Below are positions 3,303-54,748 of a DNA stretch of 64,000 bases, piece after piece. The translations under genes and the position numbers were made by a program. The notes below the pieces were generated by a model. That model worked only from the letters and a program-made list of their open reading frames with translations, did no database searches and was not told where the DNA came from. The DNA comes from an uncultured Planctomycetota bacterium (lineage in GTDB: Bacteria; Planctomycetota; PUPC01): NCBI GenBank assembly GCA_964505325.1, contig CAZDHT010000001.1, positions 10,430 to 74,429 on the forward strand, read 5' to 3'. How positions within the stretch are numbered: position 1 is the first letter of the stretch; every line of letters starts with the position of its first letter.

Positions 3303-6300
3303 AGTTGCTTCCTCACCGAATCCAGCAGCGGCCCGCCAATTTCCACCGGGATCTCGCGCCCGGCGCGCAGGAACAGCAGCGCGGCCGCCTTGGGCGCCTT
3401 GCCGAACACCTCCCGCGCCGCCAGCGCGTACGCTCCGACCTGCAGCCGGTAGCTCTGCGCGTGTTCCGCCAAGTGCTGTTCGGACACGTCGTCCGTCTTG
3501 TAATCAACAATGGTCAGGCCCGTGCCGTCGTCAAAGGCCAGGTCGATCAGCCCTTCGAGGATCGTGCCGTCCACATTCACGGCGAAGGGAACTTCCCTGT
3601 ACACGGTACCCGCCTCCGCCGCCCGCTTCACGAGTTCCATCCCCAGAGCGGCTCTGGCCAGCTTCTCGACCATCGGCGCGTGGCTCGGGATGCCATTTCG
3701 CGTTGCTTCCTGTTCGGCAAGTTCCGAAAGCCCCGCCCCTGTCGCCAGGTCGGCCTGTTCGAGCACGGCGTGCACGGCCTTGCCGATCGATCTGCCAAGC
3801 TCGCCTTCCCCTGTGGGACGGCCGAAATCCTCTCTCTCGTCTTCGCCCAGCCTGGACGCCGTTTTCAGCCGCTTCTCCTCTGCGGCCCGTCGGATAAGCT
3901 GTTCGTGCGTCCGGCGCCACTTCTCGCGGCGTTCGCACAGCGTGGCACATTCCTTGGGCGGCTTGCGCTTCAGGTTGACCCGAAATGCCCGCCGGCCGTG
4001 CGGCTTCATGACGTCGGGATCTGCCGCCACCTCGGCCTCGACTTTCTTCGCCGCGGCGCCCGCCTCTTCGGCGAGGTCGGTCAGGTACTTCAGATACCCG
4101 CCCGGCTTGTCTGAGGCGGGGAAGTGCGGAATGATCAGCCGGTCGCGCGCCCGGGTGGCCGCGACGTAGAAGAGGCGCTGGGCTTCCGCCTCCTCCACGC
4201 GCTGCTCCCGCCCCTTGGCGTCCCGGAAGCCGAGAGTCATGATTCCCCGCGATTCCGCGCCGATCCGCACCTCGAAGCTGTCGCCGATCCGGTTCGGCAC
4301 AAAACGGATGCGCGACTTGCGCCCGGCCGACATGTCGGCCAGCACCACGATGGGGAACTCGAGCCCTTTTGCCTTATGGATGGTGATCAGCTTGACGAGG
4401 TCTTCGTCTTCCTCGGCCAGAGGCGACTCGGCCTCTTCGGCGACGGTCGTCATCTCCTGCAGCCAACGGACGAACCCGCCGAACGTGGCGCCCGGCGTTT
4501 GCTCGTAGGCACGTGCGGCGTCGATCACCTTGGCCAGGTTGGCGGCGCGCTGGGCGCCCCCAGGCTTCAAATAGAACAGCTCAAGGGCTTTCGTGTCGGA
4601 GAGCACCTGCTGCACGAGGTCGGACGTACTCCTGAGATTCCGGTCCCGATGCCACGCCGCCAGCAGGCGGAAGACACCGAGGATGTACGCATCGCCCTCT
4701 TCCGCTGCGCGGCTCAGATAGTCGAACCGGGCCTCTGCCGCGGCCGCCAACTCGTCGTCCGAGACGCCGAGCAGCGACGTCCGCAGCGCGGCGACCACGG
4801 CGACGGGGTCATACGGCCGTTCGATCGCGGCCAGCACGACGCGCAGCTCGGTCACTTCCTGCCTTGCGAAGAACTCCTTTCCGCTGACCGCGCGGAACGG
4901 TATCCCGGCCGAACTGAATGCGCTCTCGTAGAGGCCGAACGCTGTACGGGCGCGGAAAAGCACGGCGACGTCCCCGTACGTCACCGGCCGCATCGTGCCC
5001 GTTTCCTTGTCCAGCACGGTATCGCCGCGCCCGATCATCGCTTTGACCTCGTGGGCGACGGTGGCCGCTTCGGCAACCCGCGCCTCGTCGATCTTGTCAA
5101 ACGCCATCCCGTCGGGCGGCTTCAGAACCGTCGCCGCCGGCCCGGCATCAGTCCGCCACGCCTCGAGCGGGACGTACTCCGGCTGATAGGCCCCGTCATC
5201 CGGGCGCTGAATAAGCTCATCGAACACCGCATTGACCCAGTCCACACAGGCCGGGGAGCTGCGGAAGTTCTGGCGGACGTGGACGAGCTTGCCGGACCGC
5301 GCCACGACCTGCTTGGCCTCTTCGTAGGTCTCGATGTCGGCGCGGCGAAAGCGGTATATCGATTGCTTCGGGTCGCCCACGAAGAGCAGCTTGCCGGGGA
5401 CGATTTCGACGTCCCGCCAGTTCGATGCCTTGGCTCCGTTCTCGGCCAGGAAAAAGACTATCTCGGTCTGCAGCGGATCGGTGTCCTGGCATTCGTCGAT
5501 CAGGATCATCTTGAAGCGCTCCTGGAAGTACCGCCGCACCGCCTTGTCGCTGCGCAGCAGATCACGGGCCTTGAGGAGCAGATCGTCGAAATCCAGCACG
5601 GCGCGCTCGCGTTTTGCCGCTTCGTACCGGGCGACCATCTCGCGCAGGACGCCGGCCAATCGGCAGGCCACCACGTGTGCGGCGCTGTCGCGGAGAGGGT
5701 CGGCCAGGTCCTGCAGCTCATTGAGTCCGGCGATGCAGAAGTCGCGCGCCGGGCCCTTGCAGGCGTTCCGGGGCTTCTTGATGCGGAGGTCGAGGCCCGG
5801 CAGGCGGGCCATGTTCTCGTCCGGGCCGGCTTCCCGCATCTGGTCGGCGGCGTTCACGGCGGACAGGATTCTTGACGCGCAGGAGCAGCCCAGCGAGGTG
5901 CAGTGCTCCTGCATGTGCCGGTACAGCGCCCGGGCCTTCGGCACGAACGCATCCACCAGCTCGGCGAGCGGCGCGGCGAGGTCCAGCTCGTCGCCACCGG
6001 GTTGCAGGTCACGATTCGCCAGGAGCAGCCGGGCGCACTCTTTGAGGTCATCGGTGCTGAGCCCGGCGACGAACGCCGAGCGAAGGGGGCCGTGTTCGTC
6101 GTGGAGCTGCCGGGCGAGCCAGGCGCTCCAGACTTCGTCGAACAGCAGGGAGGATTGCAGGCTCTCGCTGATCGCGAAGCCCGGGTCGACCTTCGCCTCG
6201 ACCGGCCGTTCGAGCAGGAGTTCGGCGGCGAACGAGTGGATCGTCGAGGCGTGGGCGGCGTCCAGCGCGGCGAGCGCGTCCGACAACCGGTCCGCCACGA

Positions 6301-9701: not shown

Positions 9702-10829
9702 TCACATGGGCTCGAGGCGCAGCGCGGCGGCGACGATGTCGAACGCCGCGCGGGGGCGCGCTGCGTTGAGAGCCGCTTTTCTCATTCGGGCGAGGTGCTC
9801 AGGCTCGGCGAGCAGACGGCCGATGACCTGGCGAAGCTTGGCGGGGGTGCTGGCGGGCAGCGCCGCACCGCGCCCTACCAGAAAGGCGGAATTCCTCTCC
9901 TCCTGCCCGGGGATCGGCAGGGTCAATACCATCGGGAGCCCAACGGCGAGGCACTCGGTGCTCGACATGCCGCCGGGTTTTGTCACGATGAGGTCCGACG
10001 CCGCCATCAGCTTCTCCATGTAATCCACGAACCCGTACGTGACCAGCTTCGCCGGCGGCGGGACGGCCAGCTCGTCGAGCCTCCGCTTCAACCTCTCGTT
10101 GTGCCCGGCGACGGCAAGGATCTGGACCGCCCCGCACTCGGCGATGGCGGCGACGGTCTTTTGCACCCCGCCCTTCCCGCCGCCCCCGCTGAGGGCCAGC
10201 ACCGTCGGCAGGCCGGGCTCCAGCCCCAGCTCCGCGCGGACTTGGGCGCGGTCAACCGGCTCGGAGAAGGCGGCGTCGATCGGGATCCCGCAGGTGGTGA
10301 CCTGGTCGGGAGGCGCCCCCTTGCTGATGAACAGGCCGCGGAGGTAGTCGGACGCGACGAAATAATGGTCCGTCCCGGGGTTGATCCATATTCGATGCGC
10401 GTCGTAGTCCGTGACCACCACCCCAACGGGGACATCGAGTTGGCCCGTTCGCCGCATCCAGGCGAGGATCTCACCGGGGAGGAAGTGCGTGCAGACGATG
10501 TGGGTGGGCTGTTTCTGCCGGACCAGGTCGATGAACTTGCCGGCGTTGAGCCGGTCGAGCGCGCACATGGCCCGGCGTTCGAAACCGTCGATCCGCTTCT
10601 TGTCCCATCGGTGGTACAGATAGCGCCAGTACCAGGGGAGGGCGCTGATCACCGAGAAGTATGAGTGGAGGTAGAGCTTGCCGAAGACTGCTCTGGTGTA
10701 CTGGATGACGTCGACCGTTTCGGCAGAGCCCTCGTACCCGGCAAGGTCGAAGGCGCTCTTCAGGGCGGCGGCGGCGCGGGCGTGACCCGCCCCGGCGGAC
10801 GCGTATGCGATGAGCAGCTTGTACGCCAT
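9702..10829 (-). CDS. GT28 family glycosyltransferase (MGDG synthase / UgtP-like diacylglycerol glycosyltransferase)
   Basis: Start moved to internal Met (MAYKLLIAYASAGAGHARAA), the canonical MGDG-synthase N-terminus; C-terminal Glyco_trans_28-like region. The upstream part of the listed ORF is not credible. Confidence 0.6.
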   Translation of the reverse strand: MAYKLLIAYASAGAGHARAAAALKSAFDLAGYEGSAETVDVIQYTRAVFGKLYLHSYFSVISALPWYWRYLYHRWDKKRIDGFERRAMCALDRLNAGKFIDLVRQKQPTHIVCTHFLPGEILAWMRRTGQLDVPVGVVVTDYDAHRIWINPGTDHYFVASDYLRGLFISKGAPPDQVTTCGIPIDAAFSEPVDRAQVRAELGLEPGLPTVLALSGGGGKGGVQKTVAAIAECGAVQILAVAGHNERLKRRLDELAVPPPAKLVTYGFVDYMEKLMAASDLIVTKPGGMSSTECLAVGLPMVLTLPIPGQEERNSAFLVGRGAALPASTPAKLRQVIGRLLAEPEHLARMRKAALNAARPRAAFDIVAAALRLEPM

Positions 10830-11030
10830 GTGCCGTCTGATCCGCAAAACGTGGATTATATCCGCCTGCGCTCGCGCCGCAAGTGCTGGGATGCCGCCGA
10901 GTCGATACCCTGAACGCGGGGCATTTGCCGGGACGAGCTGTACCCAGGCAGCATGACGGCGGGGCGGGAAGGGTGTGGATTGGGCGCGGGCAAAACGGCC
11001 GATCCCGACCGCGGCCGGGCCCACGAACGT

Positions 11031-11354
11031 CTAATCCTTGAAGAGTTGGTTGAATCTCTCGCGCGGCGTGAGCGAGCGGGTCCCGGACGGGCGTTCCGGC
11101 CTTCGGCCCGTCTGGGCGCTCGATTCCGGCGCTGCGGTCTGTCGAAAGTCGAACTCGTCGCAGTAGTTTCCGCGCTCCACGTCTGCCACGTACTCCGTGG
11201 TCCGGCTCAGACAGTGGTTGTGCGCGTCCGGCGAGTACAGCCGGCAGTTTCGGCAGCAGTGGAGGAACGCGTCGCAATGAGGGCACAATTCCTTGAAAGG
11301 CACCCGTTGCCGATCCGGTAGCTCAGTACCACACTGGTAGCAAAGTCGCATCAA
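11031..11354 (-). CDS. Cys-rich zinc-ribbon protein, unknown function
   Basis: CYQC...CPHC...HCCRNC...C pattern; 107 aa. Confidence 0.4.
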   Translation of the reverse strand: MMRLCYQCGTELPDRQRVPFKELCPHCDAFLHCCRNCRLYSPDAHNHCLSRTTEYVADVERGNYCDEFDFRQTAAPESSAQTGRRPERPSGTRSLTPRERFNQLFKD

Positions 11355-11432
11355 ACGCCTCGCAGAAACAAGGGTTCCGATGAAGTGATCCCCAACAAGA
11401 TAATAACCCAGGCCGCGACAAAAGTCAAGTTT

Positions 11433-11461
11433 TGCGGAAGCGCCTGGCGGCGAGTATAATG
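11433..11461 (+). promoter_or_regulatory. sigma70-like promoter (TTGCGG-N17-TATAAT) upstream of the DUF2062 gene
   Basis: -35 at 11433-11438, -10 TATAAT at 11456-11461, 28 nt before the ATG at 11490; lies in a divergent intergenic region. Confidence 0.4.
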
Positions 11462-11489
11462 CCGCCGATCGTCATCGAAGGGGTGCAAC

Positions 11490-12095
11490 ATGATCCGTAT
11501 CCGTTTCCGGCACTGGCGCCGATGGCTGTACCGGCGGGTGGTAAAGCTTCGGGGCTCGCCGCACGCCATCGCGCGCGGGATGGCGCTGGGCGTGATCTTC
11601 GGGAACCTGATGCCGCCGGGCCTCCAGTTGTTCACCGGCATCCCGGTCACCTTGCTGCTGGGCGGAAACGTCCTGGCAATGATCGCGGGCACTTGCGTGT
11701 CCAATCCCTTCACGTACGTCGCCCTCTATTTGTTCAATTGCCGGGTGGGCGAGGTCTTTTTGAACGGGCTCGGGGCCGAGATCAGCCTCGGGGCCGACCT
11801 GGAGGCCGCCCTCCGATCGGTGCGTGAGATGCGGATTGGCGAATTCTTCGCCGAGAGACTCCGCCCCCTGCTGTCCTGCTGGATCGCAGGCGGCCTGCTC
11901 GTCGGGCTGGCCGAATCGGTCCCCGCCTACTACCTGATGCACATCATCGTGATCCAGGTCCGCCGGCTGCAGAGCTTCGCCCGGGCGCGCCGCGCCGCCC
12001 GTCACGAGGCCCGAGCCGCCGAGGAGAAGCCTCGCAAGACAGGGGAACCTGACGAAGAAGCCCCGGACGAACAGCCGCCCCCGCCGCCGGAATAA
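11490..12095 (+). CDS. DUF2062-family membrane protein
   Basis: RRWLYRRVVKLRGSPHAIARGMALGVIFGNLMP...LLLGGN motif pattern of DUF2062. Confidence 0.55.
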   Translation: MIRIRFRHWRRWLYRRVVKLRGSPHAIARGMALGVIFGNLMPPGLQLFTGIPVTLLLGGNVLAMIAGTCVSNPFTYVALYLFNCRVGEVFLNGLGAEISLGADLEAALRSVREMRIGEFFAERLRPLLSCWIAGGLLVGLAESVPAYYLMHIIVIQVRRLQSFARARRAARHEARAAEEKPRKTGEPDEEAPDEQPPPPPE

Positions 12096-12096
12096 G

Positions 12097-12185
12097 GGGC
12101 TCTATCAAGACCCTGGTGGGGCAGGCATTCTTGCCTGCCACGGGGCAGACAGGAATGTCCGCCCCACTGTTTTTTTGGAGCTCGC
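12097..12185 (+). repeat. intergenic repeat element, copy A (perfect palindrome GGCAGGCA-ttct-TGCCTGCC plus a second GC hairpin and T-run)
   Basis: ~85-90% identical to the reverse complement of 36308-36392; shares modules with 24940-25055; sits between convergent genes. Confidence 0.7.
12142..12177 (+). terminator. rho-independent terminator-like hairpin + TTTTTTT (part of repeat copy A)
   Basis: GGGGCAGACA-gga-TGTCCGCCCC stem followed by ACTGTTTTTTT, directly after the stop of the DUF2062 gene. Confidence 0.5.
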
Positions 12186-12238
12186 AAGCCCAGTCGTCTC
12201 TCGCCGATCAAGCGCCGCTGATCAGAAGCTGCCGGCTT

Positions 12239-12826
12239 CTACTGTGGCCCGTCCCAGTACCGTCGGACCGCCCAGGCCTTGTCCTCGTGGATCCACTGCA
12301 CGCGGCCGTCGAGGAAAATCACGTTGGCGCCGCCGCGGTGGCGCCACTCAATATCCCCGAAGCCGCCCAGGCCCGCGCGGTCACTCTCCTGCGCCCCGTC
12401 CGCGATCACGCCGATCTCCAGCCGGAGCCTGAAGGAATCCATCGGCGCGTGAGGAGGCCCGAACACGTGAACGTTCCCGACGTACCCGCCTCCTGCCGGA
12501 CAGCCCCACAGGCGGCTCTTCCCTTCGCCCCGGGGGTTGTCGTCCGCCTGCAGGAGCGTATCGACCTGCTCGCGCCACGTGCCGATGGAGCCCTCGCCGA
12601 GCGGCACGTCCTGACAGGGCGGGTAGCCACCGGAACTCTGTGCGTAGTTCCGGACGGCGCCGAAGATCTGGACGAGCTGGTGCCGGCAGCGCAGGATGAG
12701 TGAGGTCTGGTAGGTGCGCCGCAGGACCGGGCCCATGATAGTGATGACCGCCAAGATGAGGATGATCGCAACCAGAAGTTCGGCGCGCGCAGAACGCGCT
12801 GCCTTTGACTGCCGTTGCTGGGGCAC
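12239..12826 (-). CDS. DUF1559 / prepilin-like (type II secretion pseudopilin-like) protein
   Basis: Hydrophobic N-terminal helix (AELLVAIILILAVI) followed by the ...C..HQLVQIFGAVRNY...GGYPP and C-terminal NVIFLDGRVQWI motifs typical of Planctomycete DUF1559 proteins. Start is uncertain; the listed GTG at 12970 is probably too far upstream, so an internal GTG near 12826 is proposed. Confidence 0.5.
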   Translation of the reverse strand: MPQQRQSKAARSARAELLVAIILILAVITIMGPVLRRTYQTSLILRCRHQLVQIFGAVRNYAQSSGGYPPCQDVPLGEGSIGTWREQVDTLLQADDNPRGEGKSRLWGCPAGGGYVGNVHVFGPPHAPMDSFRLRLEIGVIADGAQESDRAGLGGFGDIEWRHRGGANVIFLDGRVQWIHEDKAWAVRRYWDGPQ

Positions 12827-12964
12827 GCCACGACTCCCGATGGGGTTCCGTGCCGTGGCATTATACCGCGCCCCGTGCGCCGGGTCAAAGGCAGGGTCAT
12901 TCAATTCTCGTCTGGAAACGGCCGAGGTCAATGCCCTCGGCTGCAAATGACCCGGATTCCACCT

Positions 12965-12986
12965 CTTCACTTGGCTGAAGTGTTAC
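12965..12986. repeat. 22-nt hairpin motif CTTCA-cttggc-TGAAG-TGTTAC, site 1
   Basis: 20-nt exact match (reverse complement) at 25794-25813 and a 20/22 match at 23498-23519. Confidence 0.6.
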
Positions 12987-13093
12987 GATCACGCGTTGTC
13001 CGCCGAAGCCTTGCCGGAGGTGGAAGGACACGAAGAAGACTCCTCACTCCTTCGTACTACAAGCTGTCAGAAGTTTGTTTTTTTGGACACTTT

Positions 13094-14632
13094 TCATGCG
13101 GCCGTGTCTTTCAAGAGTGCCCAATCGGTTTGACGGAAGATAAGGGCGGTGGCCATCAGCAGGTGTCCGTGGGGTGCGATGCGATAGAGGTTTCGATGTG
13201 GGACCTTGCGGATGAGTTGGTGTGCTCGCAAGAGCCGAAGGTGTCTGGCGACTTGTCCACGCCGGCGGGCGGCTTCTTTTGGGGTGTTCGCCTGGGTGGG
13301 GAAGAGCAGGCGTTGGATGTGGCGGCTGGTGAAGCCGTGGAGGAGATGCTCACCGTGAAGGATCGCTTCGAAAAGACGGCTCTCCTCGGGTGCAATGGGC
13401 CGCAACGGCCGATACGGCTTCCGGCCTTTGCGTACCCGCCGGCTGACGGCATCGAGAAGCTGGTGCGACGGGGTCGGATCTCCGACAACGGCGAGCGCCT
13501 CCAGATAGCGCCCATTGGCGTCCCGGCAGATGGTGATGCGCCGGGCCAGGTCCCGCAGTCCCTTGCTCATCTTTCCCCAGACCAGTCGGCCGTCTTTGCG
13601 GCGCAACGCCTGGAATCGGCGCGGGTTGTTGATCGTCGTTTCGATGCGGAGGATGATGCCCTCCTTGTCGTACATCTTGAGCGAGTTCTCGTTGACCTGA
13701 TGCTTGAGACGGACTCCCTCCACTCGGTGGCGCTTGGAGGTGACGACGCGGTTGGGCAGCATGCCTCGTACGCGGTCGGTCAGGAAGCGCAGCACGTCGC
13801 GGCTGGAGAAGTGTCGGAGGGCGTGTCCCCACAGAGACGGATAAACCTTCTGAAGGGCCTTGCGGCTCTTGAAGAGCACGTCGGTTGCATACTCGCTCTC
13901 ATAGACGGTCCAGTAGTAGCCGAACCGCCCGACGAATCCCAATTCCTTGAGCAGCGGGTTCACTCGGCGGGCCGGCGGGTTGAGAAACCTCGCCCAGTTC
14001 CGAATCTCCAAGCGGCGCAGAATCGCCTGGGCCCGCGGCAGGTCTCCGATGTCGAACAGGGCGTTGTGAATCTGCTCGAAGGAGATGCTCTCGCGCTTCA
14101 ACTGCTCGGCGAGGTAGAGCCGCCCGTTCACGTAGACCTGAACGTCGAACGGAACCCACGACTGAATCCGCAGATGCATCAGGCCGAACTCCCAATCCAG
14201 CCAGTAGAAGTAAAAGAAGCGGCACTTCCGCATCCGGTACGTCACCTCCAGGTGACCCGAATCCCGGTTCCGGCGCAGGTCGGCCGTCACGCACGGCTCG
14301 ACACACGCCAGCACGCAAATCAGCCCCGCCGTGACGCCATCGCGTTCCGCGATCTGCCGGGCGTATTCATCCTTCCGAACACCGGACGACTGAAGGTAGA
14401 TGTACGGCCGGTTCGACTTCGTCGCGACCTCCTTCGCCCGTGCATCCAACGCTCGCGTGCATTGCTCCGCGAACGAACCGAAGTCCTTGAGCAAAATCCC
14501 ATGAGCCGTTAGGAACCGATCCAGCCCATGCGAGTAGTTGATCGAGCGCAGCACGCCTCGGAACATCAGCCGGTCGAACCCCTCCAGAACACACTCGATG
14601 ACTTCCGTGTGCCGTGTGATAAAATCGGTCAT
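13094..14632 (-). CDS. hypothetical protein (512 aa), unidentified family; possible mobile-element or accessory gene
   Basis: Long ORF with ordinary amino-acid composition, unlike the antisense ORFs around it. No P-loop, DDE (Y-2-R-3-E-6-K), YxDD or recombinase motifs seen. Basic, possibly winged-helix C-terminus (RHLRLLRAHQLIRKVPHRNLYRI). Flanked by 123-nt and 232-nt non-coding spacers; GC visibly lower than its neighbours. Confidence 0.55.
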   Translation of the reverse strand: MTDFITRHTEVIECVLEGFDRLMFRGVLRSINYSHGLDRFLTAHGILLKDFGSFAEQCTRALDARAKEVATKSNRPYIYLQSSGVRKDEYARQIAERDGVTAGLICVLACVEPCVTADLRRNRDSGHLEVTYRMRKCRFFYFYWLDWEFGLMHLRIQSWVPFDVQVYVNGRLYLAEQLKRESISFEQIHNALFDIGDLPRAQAILRRLEIRNWARFLNPPARRVNPLLKELGFVGRFGYYWTVYESEYATDVLFKSRKALQKVYPSLWGHALRHFSSRDVLRFLTDRVRGMLPNRVVTSKRHRVEGVRLKHQVNENSLKMYDKEGIILRIETTINNPRRFQALRRKDGRLVWGKMSKGLRDLARRITICRDANGRYLEALAVVGDPTPSHQLLDAVSRRVRKGRKPYRPLRPIAPEESRLFEAILHGEHLLHGFTSRHIQRLLFPTQANTPKEAARRRGQVARHLRLLRAHQLIRKVPHRNLYRIAPHGHLLMATALIFRQTDWALLKDTAA

Positions 14633-14864: not shown

Positions 14865-15419
14865 ATGAAACGGTATTGGATGTTTGCCGCAGTGACGTTG
14901 GCATTGGCGCTGGCCGCGGGGCCGGCTTTGGCGAAGGACGGACCGGGCGGGAAGGGCCCTGGCCGGCGCGGCCGCCAGATGCGGCGGCGCGGGCTCGGCA
15001 TGCGCCGCGGGCCGGGCATGCGCCGCGGGCCCCTGATGCTCCGCCTGGGCGAGAAGCTCGAGCTGGGCGAGCAACAGAAGAAGAAGATCGCCGAGATCCG
15101 CGAGGCCGCCCGCGAGAAGATCAAGGCCGCCGACTCCCCCGAGAAGCGGCACGAGATCATCAAGCAGGTTCGCGAGGACATCAAGAAGGTCCTCACCGCC
15201 GAGCAGATCAAGAAGCAGGAAGAGGTCCGCAAGGAGCACGGCCTCGGCCTGACCGAGGAGCAGCGCGAGAAGATGGCGGAGATCCGCAAGAAGATGCACG
15301 AGGAGATGAAGAAGGTCCTCACCGAAGAGCAGCTCAAGAAGCAGGATCAACTCCGCCGGCGCTTTCGCGGCCGGCGGCACCACTTCGGGCCGCCTCTCGG
15401 CCCGCGGCCCGAGAAGTAG
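14865..15419 (+). CDS. Spy/CpxP-like periplasmic LTxxQ-repeat protein
   Basis: Signal peptide, then repeated LTAEQ / LTEEQ motifs with K/E-rich helices; AGGAGG RBS 8 nt upstream of ATG 14865. Confidence 0.6.
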   Translation: MKRYWMFAAVTLALALAAGPALAKDGPGGKGPGRRGRQMRRRGLGMRRGPGMRRGPLMLRLGEKLELGEQQKKKIAEIREAAREKIKAADSPEKRHEIIKQVREDIKKVLTAEQIKKQEEVRKEHGLGLTEEQREKMAEIRKKMHEEMKKVLTEEQLKKQDQLRRRFRGRRHHFGPPLGPRPEK

Positions 15420-24458: not shown

Positions 24459-24498
24459 CGTCGGATGAATGGCCCCGGGTAAACACGGATAAACGCAA

Positions 24499-24924
24499 AT
24501 GGCGAAAGAAGTCGTCGAGGTCTTCAGGATGCAGGTGGTCGCGGGCCAGGCAACGCCCGCCCCCCCGGTCGGCGTCGCTCTGGGCCCAAGGAACGTCAAC
24601 CCGGGCGCGTTCTGCAAGGAGTTCAACGACCGCACGCGCGCCCTCCAGGGCACCACCGTCACCGTCGAGATGACGATCTACCGGGACCGGTCGTTCTCCT
24701 TCGAGGTGCTCGGCCCCCCGGCGTCGGCCCTGCTGAAGAAGGCGGCCAATATCGTCAAGGGGTCCAGCGTGCCGAACAAAGAGAAGGTCGCGCAGGTGAC
24801 CCGTTCCCAGATCGAGGCGATCGCCAAGGAGAAGATGAAGGATCTCAACACCAGGGATCTGGCGGCGGCGGTCGGGCAGTTGGAAGGCACCGCTCGCAGC
24901 ATGGGTATCGATATCGTCGACTAG
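24499..24924 (+). CDS. rplK: 50S ribosomal protein L11
   Basis: MAKEVVEVFRMQVVAGQATPAPPVGVALGPRNVNPGAFCKEFN... Confidence 0.95.
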   Translation: MAKEVVEVFRMQVVAGQATPAPPVGVALGPRNVNPGAFCKEFNDRTRALQGTTVTVEMTIYRDRSFSFEVLGPPASALLKKAANIVKGSSVPNKEKVAQVTRSQIEAIAKEKMKDLNTRDLAAAVGQLEGTARSMGIDIVD

Positions 24925-24939
24925 GGCCCCGAACATGAC

Positions 24940-25055
24940 GCCGGTGGGGCAGGCATTCCTGCCTGCCCGACGGCCGAGAGGAAGGGACTCCGCCGAAGCG
25001 GCTATGTCCCTCTCGCGAAGGCGGATGTCCGCCCTACCCTTTTGTTGGAGCGCCT
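24940..25055 (+). repeat. intergenic repeat element, copy C (palindrome GGCAGGCA-ttcc-TGCCTGCC, a ~45-nt insert, then the GATGTCCGCCC...TTTTGTTGGAGC module)
   Basis: Shares the 5' and 3' modules of copy A (12097-12185); lies between rplK and rplA. Confidence 0.65.
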
Positions 25056-31693: not shown

Positions 31694-36304
<4,611 letters not shown>

Positions 36305-36307
36305 GGA

Positions 36308-36392
36308 GCTCTGGCAAAGCGGTGGGGCGGAGGTCCCTGTCTGCCCGTGGCAGGCAAGAATGCCTGCCCCACCAGGGTCTTGACAGGCCCTT
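36308..36392 (-). repeat. intergenic repeat element, copy B (reverse orientation; palindrome GGCAGGCA-agaa-TGCCTGCC)
   Basis: Its reverse complement aligns at ~85-90% identity over ~85 nt with 12097-12185; lies between rpoC and rpsL. Confidence 0.7.
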
Positions 36393-36414
36393 AACGCAGA
36401 AAGGAGCAGAAACG

Positions 36415-36786: not shown

Positions 36787-36804
36787 GCAACGGAATTCGC
36801 CACT

Positions 36805-36919
36805 GATGAACACGGATGGACACTGATAAGAGCCTATCCAAGAAGGTGCGCTGGTCTTGTGGCACGGTTTTTGGATAGCCTCAGACAACAAATCCGTGTT
36901 TATCCGTGTTCATCCGTGG
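36805..36919 (+). promoter_or_regulatory. structured S12-S7 intercistronic leader: AACACGGAT at 36805-36819 pairs with tandem ATCCGTGTT repeats at 36892-36919
   Basis: 13-15 nt complementarity enclosing ~90 nt; ATCCGTGTT x2 + ATCCGTGG tandem immediately upstream of the rpsG RBS. Confidence 0.4.
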
Positions 36920-36946
36920 CTGGTCTCTGAGAACAAGGGGTTGGGA

Positions 36947-54592: not shown

Positions 54593-54670
54593 GGGCGATT
54601 AGCTCAGTTGGTTTAGAGCGCTTGCTCGACAAGCAAGAGGTCGGTGGTTCGAATCCACTATCGCCCACCA
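54593..54670 (+). tRNA. tRNA-Val (anticodon GAC), apparently with C at position 33
   Basis: GGGCGAT/ATCGCCC acceptor, GCTCAGTTGG D-arm, anticodon loop TCGACAA, GGTTCGAATCC T-arm, CCA encoded. Confidence 0.65.
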
Positions 54671-54748
54671 GATCAGCTATCAGCGGTCAGCGGTCAGCTA
54701 TCAGCCCGCTCAAAGCTGATAGCTGATAGCTGATAGCTTTTATAAGGA
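54671..54748 (+). terminator. long imperfect hairpin built from heptamer repeats (TCAGC/GCTGATA x3-4) followed by TTTTAT; intrinsic terminator or attenuator 6 nt before the thrS RBS
   Basis: GATCAGCTATCAGCGGTCAGCGGTCAGCTATCAGC...GCTGATAGCTGATAGCTGATAGC TTTTAT. Confidence 0.5.

Follow-up and report, generated by a model that had tools for sequence, protein, structure and literature searches.

What kind of element are the three structured repeats which lie at gene boundaries within the 64-kb stretch of planctomycetal DNA analysed here (in the following referred to as the window), and how did they get there? The initial annotation had offered a REP/MITE-like mobile repeat, a shared terminator or processing cassette and an operator for a dimeric DNA-binding protein as candidate identities. 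In our view the three repeats are very probably REPINs, i.e. inverted REP doublets, which are small non-coding mobile elements. The following sections set out the evidence for this assignment and weigh it against the remaining readings.

Architecture of the three copies

The element measures about 88 nt (Table 1). Neither an nhmmer search with a profile of the whole element nor a fuzzy search for its half-sites revealed any copy in the 64-kb window beyond these three. As first described, the copies have in common a perfect 8+4+8 palindrome: there are exactly three instances of GGCAGGCA-N4-TGCCTGCC in the window versus 0.08 matches expected from shuffled sequences, none of 100 shuffles containing three or more. 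Aligned with the reverse complement of copy B, copy A is identical at 77 of about 90 positions, corresponding to some 82% over 94 aligned columns, which is slightly lower than the 85-90% estimated earlier. A repeat search over the whole window retrieves the same two copies as an inverted pair with a 43-nt core of 98% identity. Copy C shares both its ends with A and B and harbours additional nucleotides inside. This internal insert, originally put at about 45 nt, amounts to about 42 nt by alignment, its borders being ambiguous and placed by comparison with A, B and the insert-free orthologous copy of a relative (L196). Look-ups of RplA led to two metagenome contigs of the source organism (L113 and L114) in which the sequence of copy C is identical, and due to this identity of the spacer they are uninformative on polymorphism. 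JGI metagenome 3300031537 and run SRR9710542 are the data sets in which the sequence of the source organism recurs.

The building block of the element is a hairpin unit headed by the tetranucleotide GTGG, which is followed with a gap of 0 nt by an 8-bp stem and a 4-nt loop (GGCAGGCA-TTCY-TGCCTGCC). In the unit designated REP1 the stem is perfect, the loop comprises 4 nt and the tag directly abuts the stem in all three copies. According to the rule given in PMC6006769, a REP consists of GTAG or GTGG located 0-2 nt 5' of a 7-20-bp stem with a 2-5-nt loop, and both the tag and the stem-loop of REP1 lie within these canonical limits. The 5' and 3' modules which had been distinguished previously are indeed both present, but they are not two different modules: they represent one unit which occurs twice in inverted orientation. 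Likewise, the "second GC hairpin" reported for copy A exists, but, rather than being a separate structure, it is the inverted partner of the first palindrome, GGCAGACA-GGAA-TGTCCGCC. Together with its tag this REP2 reads GGCAGACAGGAATGTCCGCC-CCAC, i.e. it is the REP1 unit in reverse, from which it differs by one compensated change in the stem and by one mismatch, and 7 of its 8 stem positions are paired, the remaining one being the A·C mismatch.

In each doublet the tags point outward. The two REPs are separated by 4 nt in A and by 3 nt in B, while the partner REP of C is interrupted. About 20 nt beyond each GTGG tag are common to the three copies and partly complementary, which enables the whole 88 nt or so to form one long hairpin. 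Such a single long hairpin is calculated for copy A both as RNA (-56.6 kcal/mol, z -6.65) and as DNA (-23.4 kcal/mol, z -4.43), and REP1 of this copy alone, as DNA, reaches -10.1 kcal/mol (z -5.1). Inverted REPs with a spacer of this length, along with the one-hairpin fold of A, correspond to the anatomy of a REPIN. Head-to-head dimers are described in the text of PMC3733652 as the commonest REP arrangement.

Table 1. Positions of the three element copies and of their parts within the window.
Feature	Position	Strand	Composition or location
Copy A, complete element	12096..12183	+	outer arm, REP1, 4-nt spacer, inverted REP2, second outer arm
A REP1	12116..12139	+	GTGG 12116-12119, then GGCAGGCA TTCT TGCCTGCC (palindrome 12120-12139)
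A spacer ACGG	12140-12143		between REP1 and REP2
A REP2, inverted partner	12144..12167	-	+ strand: GGCAGACA GGAA TGTCCGCC, then CCAC
A T7 run	12170-12176	+	3' of long hairpin
Copy C	24925..25054	+	rplK-rplA spacer; element profile and alignment
C REP1, intact	24944..24967	+	GTGG 24944-24947, then GGCAGGCA TTCC TGCCTGCC (palindrome 24948-24967)
C partner REP, disrupted	24972..25037	-	GGCCGAGAGGAA 24972-24983, insert 24984-25025, TGTCCGCCCTAC 25026-25037
Copy B, complete element	36305..36395	-	rpoC-rpsL spacer
B partner REP, degenerate	36322..36345	+	GTGG, then GGCGGAGG TCCC TGTCTGCC
B spacer CGT	36346-36348		between partner REP and REP1
B REP1	36349..36372	-	- strand: GTGG, then GGCAGGCA TTCT TGCCTGCC; + strand: palindrome 36349-36368, then CCAC 36369-36372

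Insertion sites, orthologous junctions and the question of a host function

Pfam assignments corroborate the gene contexts which had been proposed for the three copies. Copy A is located between a DUF2062 gene (11490-12095, + strand) and a convergent 243-aa open reading frame (12239-12970, - strand) for which no family match was obtained, copy C between rplK and rplA, and copy B between rpoC and rpsL. All of them begin immediately behind a stop codon, namely TAA at 12093-12095 in the case of A, TAG of rplK at 24922-24924 in the case of C and TAA of rpoC at 36302-36304 in the case of B, the junctions of stop and element reading TAA/GGGGCTC (A), TAG/GGCCCC (C) and TAA/GGAGCTC (B). Conceivably, the element brings a stop codon with it or targets one. 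With n = 3, the start right after stops is just a lead, which could mean either that the element inserts at a specific target or that the host makes use of it to end translation or transcription.

We would like to note some further details of these gene ends. Read on the other strand, the far end of B is TTAAGGGCC. The C-terminal residues of RpoC are the same in the window and in a relative which is devoid of the element (L197), the stop codon being TAA in the former and TAG in the latter. RplK of the window is three residues shorter than that of L197.

According to its RplA homologues, the source organism belongs to a planctomycete lineage that is uncultured. Comparison with relatives reveals what these junctions look like in the absence of the element. 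In three of them, which share 72-74% RplA identity with the source organism (L197, L198 and L199), rplK and rplA overlap by 4 nt, compared to a spacer of 155 nt in the window. The gap between rpoC and rpsL amounts to 19 nt in L197 and L198, the two which reach rpsL, versus 110 nt in the window. Both enlarged spacers of the window consist mostly of the element. Since the respective genes overlap or nearly abut in the relatives, copies C and B are to be regarded as lineage-specific insertions. In a closer relative with 89% RplA identity (L195 and L196) a decayed copy is present at the same rplK-rplA position; its first palindrome lacks two pairs, its partner has suffered severe degradation and nothing corresponds to the 42-nt insert of C. 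The element is therefore found in some lineages and missing at the orthologous site in others, as befits a mobile element. Judged from two outgroup lineages which, at the above RplA identity, are fairly distant, B and C appear to have been gained within the source lineage. Their gain, along with the decay of at least one ortholog, is the pattern of selfish insertion and not that of a regulatory hairpin under selection. For copy A, no orthologous site was obtained, as exact-protein look-ups of the 243-aa open reading frame and of RpsL remained without match.

These junctions also bear on the reading that the repeat is a transcription or RNA element of the host, be it a shared intrinsic terminator, an attenuator or an mRNA-stabilising or processing hairpin at the ends of transcription units, which we consider improbable. 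Like an intrinsic terminator, the element forms a G+C-rich hairpin after a stop codon, and this holds directly behind the stop for all three copies. The very stable hairpin of A is followed by TGTTTTTTT, and TTTTGTT is present after the 3' half of C. In addition, REPs of E. coli are reported to affect termination, mRNA stability and ribosome stalling at nearby stops (PMC3733652, PMC12306157), the stalling being described for REPs near termination codons (PMC12306157). However, the T7 run, which had been noted before and is real, belongs to copy A only. In B no T-run is present on the strand transcribed from rpoC to rpsL, and a consensus scan for terminators and promoters finds a terminator at none of the three copies and no promoter-like site nearby. 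Elsewhere, a T-rich tail (at least four T in the next 8 nt) accompanies just 8 of 39 distinct doublets of other genomes. Unlike intrinsic terminators, B and most family members lack a T-run, and the conserved feature which defines the family, the GTGG tag with the doublet, is foreign to terminators. Moreover, the overlapping or nearly abutting genes of the relatives indicate that the element is not needed at the C and B sites, the orthologous copy in the 89% relative is devoid of its pairing, and there is no Rfam match. With the T-run confined to A, no terminator called at any copy and so few T-rich tails elsewhere, the shared terminator or processing cassette of the initial annotation is unsupported as a property of the element. 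Given that no copy is called by the scan, we dropped the terminator as the identity of the element and retained it solely as a possible side effect of A, whose T7 run could act as terminator tail for the DUF2062 gene without being a feature of the family.

Searched at gathering score, the whole window matches Rfam models of tRNAs only. In E-value mode nothing meaningful emerged for the three copies, the best match being a eukaryotic microRNA model with 28 bits versus a cut-off of 100. Known RNA families, including ribosomal protein leaders, were excluded since Rfam yields no relevant match. A tRNA-like reading was rejected on the basis of anatomy, and ARAGORN finds a tRNA in none of the three copies.

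The window contains additional repeats and hairpins. A second structured repeat, unrelated to the one described here, occupies the rpsL-rpsG spacer (36790-36930) and occurs also in the nusG-rplK spacer (24474-24500). Its arms are composed of 10-nt units, CACGGATGAA / CACGGATAAA in one arm and ATCCGTGTTY in the other, and form a hairpin of about 130 nt (-67.9 kcal/mol, z -7.35). The unit pair has six matches in the window versus 0.18 expected, two of which lie just upstream of rplK, and an Rfam search of this repeat produced no match. Directly after tRNA-Val (54593-54670) a hairpin is found at 54675-54738 (-37.5 kcal/mol, z -5.5) which is followed by TTTTAT and is probably a terminator. Its stems are built from 7-nt tandem units, AGCTATC/AGCGGTC in one arm and three times AGCTGAT in the other. 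Finally, a tandem 126-nt repeat with 78% identity is located at 15140-15356 in a coding region with many E, K and Q codons, with weaker copies of a 44-nt sub-unit in its vicinity.

The same REP in other genomes and its link to RAYT-type transposases

A scan with the query GGGGCAGGCANNNNTGCCTGCC, considering one genome per species, identified at least 112 loci. Among the matches listed, a GT tag precedes GGGGCAGGCA in 57 of 64 from Planctomycetota, in 28 of 30 from Verrucomicrobiota/Lentisphaerae/Kiritimatiellales and in 15 of 17 from Acidobacteriota, i.e. in 100 of 111 for these three main phylum groups. The phylum labels were taken from the database records, and many of these records are MAGs; several matches reside on contigs of hundreds of kb or in an isolate genome. 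None of the 20 matches listed for Proteobacteria, Actinobacteria and Chloroflexi possesses the tag, and 16 of these 20 are plain symmetric hairpins. These symmetric hairpins are best explained as chance or as ordinary terminators. An inverted partner within 140 nt accompanies 54 of the tagged matches listed (38 in Planctomycetota, 11 in the Verrucomicrobiota group and 5 in Acidobacteriota). In the matches listed for the three main groups this partner usually ends with CCCCAC and lies at a distance ranging from a few nucleotides to a few tens. Some genomes harbour the REP at multiple loci, at least 7 being listed for the Gemmataceae isolate CJuql4 and at least 11 for the Planctomycetota MAG BLK5-2.bin.71.

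The partner halves were collected with a pattern which let both sides of the stem vary independently. In 31 distinct halves the stem pair 6-15 is A-T in 16 cases, G-C in 14 and mismatched in one. As the two sides were free to vary and are nevertheless paired, pairing is what is conserved. The sequence beyond the tags, by comparison, is lineage-specific and often self-complementary.

An operator for a dimeric regulator, or a site for a nucleoid protein, which controls the neighbouring genes would agree with an 8-4-8 palindrome that is perfect and present twice per element and with the preservation of its sequence in distant genomes. Yet, the compensatory stem changes maintain pairing instead of a fixed double-stranded recognition sequence. 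Furthermore, the copies follow stops rather than promoters, one of them lies between convergent genes and no promoter-like site is close by. The genes next to the REP are unrelated across loci, and relatives lack the sites altogether. The operator suggested at the outset is hence without support and we regard it as highly improbable.

Two observations concern variants of the REP and its surroundings. In a number of Verrucomicrobiota loci (L012, L025, L027, L028, L046, L050, L054 and L071) the GT-tagged unit carries the loop TCCT or TCCC and occurs without an inverted copy of itself. In these loci it is followed 6-7 nt further on by a different small hairpin, GGGGCATCCCTGCCCC, which makes up a distinct composite arrangement of the REP; the set includes a MAG labelled Akkermansia muciniphila. 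In several loci (e.g. L005, L037, L062, L092 and L112) the REP is adjoined by tandem repeats with units of about 6-8 nt, often about 7.

Screening the open reading frames of the 112 loci for the HUH and tyrosine motifs of Y1 transposases yielded three genes. One of them, on the contig of a Verrucomicrobiota MAG (L043), is a Y1 gene which has the doublets described here on both sides. Its product contains the motifs HVH and YIDANP. The best NCBIfam model for this protein is NF047646, REP-associated tyrosine transposase (E 2.6e-15; 56.6 bits, which is below the curated cut-off of 80), while its score against Pfam Y1_Tnp (25.6 bits) is above the cut-off of 23. The protein has 254 homologues, many of which are called RayT by JGI. 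A second one of the three (L038) lies amid several copies of a GTGG-tagged hairpin of its own.

The expectation that most relatives of the L043 transposase carry exactly this palindrome failed: allowing for up to two substitutions, it is found near the gene in just 4-5 of 80 metagenome loci which encode such relatives, most of which have their own variant instead. Partial flanking of transposase genes by this REP is observed in L171, L115, L118 and L124, and the closest relatives of the L043 enzyme (55-65% identity) possess the related core GCAGACA-ATCC-TGTCTGC. Perfect hairpins of the same design are about 7-fold enriched around 60 relatives (4.43 per kb in the flanks versus a background of 0.64 per kb in the remainder of these loci). 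At least one flanking hairpin is present in 51 of the 60, hairpins on both sides in 32, and in 26 the upstream and downstream hairpins have a common 6-mer. The commonest tags around these genes are GGAG, GTAG and GTGA.

Some further observations on RAYT-type genes and REP units deserve mention. Genes of this type about 60% identical to the L043 enzyme were encountered in two organisms (L200 at 10001-13722, L201, L202 and L204), in both of which their surroundings are the same, with archease, cobW and rtcB as convergent neighbours. Each of them is bracketed by one inverted pair GTGA-CGCAGACA-ATCC-TGTCTGCG, with no more copies in 20 kb, a picture resembling a single-copy RAYT which is maintained vertically and whose REPs have not expanded into a population. 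In L043, a single "double-foot" unit, GTGGGGCAGGCACTCCTGCCTGCCCCAC, is positioned at 3596-3625, past the downstream doublet and inside a long open reading frame with repeated DWDGDG motifs. It would be an intragenic REP insertion of the kind reported for Opitutus terrae, certain GTAG families being described in PMC3733652 as having copies in frame inside genes. In L197, which is element-free at both junctions, a Y1_Tnp gene is found at 1456-2127, about 5 kb upstream of tuf, which scores 33 bits against the RAYT profile; 20 kb of L197 contain no copy of this REP.

The 64-kb window itself contains no RAYT gene. Going by the REP/RAYT systems which have been characterised, the element is probably copied by a RAYT tyrosine transposase, and we infer that such an enzyme is present in the source genome and mobilises these copies. 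The element, which does not itself code for anything, would be copied as single-stranded DNA. Recognition of the hairpin plus its GT[AG]G tag, followed by cutting and rejoining of the DNA, would fall to a RAYT, a Y1 HUH enzyme whose gene would lie at some other place in the genome. Once inserted, the element may affect its host through a terminator-like action of A, through mRNA stability or through translation termination, the last being conceivable because each copy starts right after a stop codon.

A classical TIR-type MITE, moved by the DDE transposase of an insertion sequence, would likewise be a short, non-coding, inserted element with partly complementary outer arms, but it is a most unlikely identity here since conservation resides in the internal pair of GTGG-tagged hairpins while the outer arms vary by lineage, the sole transposase found beside this repeat is a Y1 HUH enzyme, and target-site duplications, a check proposed at the outset, are not visible as direct flanking duplications in alignments of A, B and C with their flanks. 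Of the REP/MITE-like repeat initially considered, the REP form is thus retained, on account of the GTGG-tagged hairpin, the inverted doublets, the L043 transposase and the empty sites, and the TIR-type MITE is discarded.

Relation to known repeat families and implications

As REPINs, the three copies belong to a known kind of bacterial repeat. In common with the REP/BIME elements of E. coli, the REPINs of Pseudomonas fluorescens (PMC3116915) and the GTAG super-family as described in PMC3733652, they have a short perfect hairpin which carries GT[AG]G at its foot. Further traits in common with REP/RAYT systems are the intergenic location, the inverted doublets with their tags outside and the possibility of forming one long hairpin. 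To these are added, in L043, a Y1 HUH gene bracketed by the same repeats (the REPtron arrangement) and the finding that each relative of the transposase has its own hairpin variant. IS200/IS605 elements, with their Y1 transposase TnpA and subterminal hairpins, involve the same enzyme superfamily, and single-stranded hairpin recognition guided by a short foot sequence, without target duplication, is a further likeness. Unlike in IS200/IS605, the present element contains no transposase gene, and its hairpins are inverted copies of each other instead of a left and a right end which differ.

GTAG-type REPs and tyrosine transposases have already been reported for the PVC group, the text of PMC3733652 naming Opitutus terrae, Rhodopirellula baltica and Planctomyces species. 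According to the same text, GTGG is the tag of most GTAG-20 units of O. terrae. The element resembles GTAG families 17-21 of O. terrae and R. baltica, as presented there, in its PVC hosts and GTGG tags, and the head-to-head dimers of these families are sometimes just 1-2 bp apart. In contrast, the intragenic peptides given for the GTAG families (e.g. GTGVPPV, VGPALAAG and RSVVLHR) do not fit this palindrome, and none of the six peptides which this REP can encode occurs in the supplementary tables of PMC3733652. The sequence GGCAGRCA-N4-TGYCTGCC is absent from the text and supplementary tables of that paper as searched, the consensus sequences of its Figure 1 apart, and a full-text literature search returned unrelated primers only. 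This REP is probably a family different from GTAG 17-21; the comparison with the 24 families of PMC3733652 covers peptides and text.

What is notable about these REPINs is solely the occurrence of one hairpin under several phylum labels. REPs are usually described as species-specific (PMC6006769), and it is in this respect that the present REP departs from the usual ones, as the same 22-nt unit is found under three or more such labels. That GTGG-GGCAGRCA-N4-TGYCTGCC and a cognate RAYT clade are shared nearly unchanged by Planctomycetota, Verrucomicrobiota/Lentisphaerae and Acidobacteriota is a tentative proposal which we ourselves rate as rather doubtful. If true, the partnership of repeat and transposase would predate by far all those described to date or would have crossed phylum boundaries, and it would run counter to the common view that REPs are species-specific and inherited strictly vertically. 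One REP under several phylum labels, along with a clade of transposases whose flanking hairpins vary in step with it, provides a data set which bears on the vertical-only inheritance of REPIN-RAYT systems.

For annotation, such hairpins should be masked or labelled as REP/REPIN and not as small genes, leaders or terminators. Left unmasked in the high-G+C genomes of the PVC group and of acidobacteria, they would give rise to spurious short open reading frames. Ultimately, the copies in rplK-rplA and rpoC-rpsL illustrate that elements of this type can settle in the most conserved operons, at positions where relatives have no spacer.
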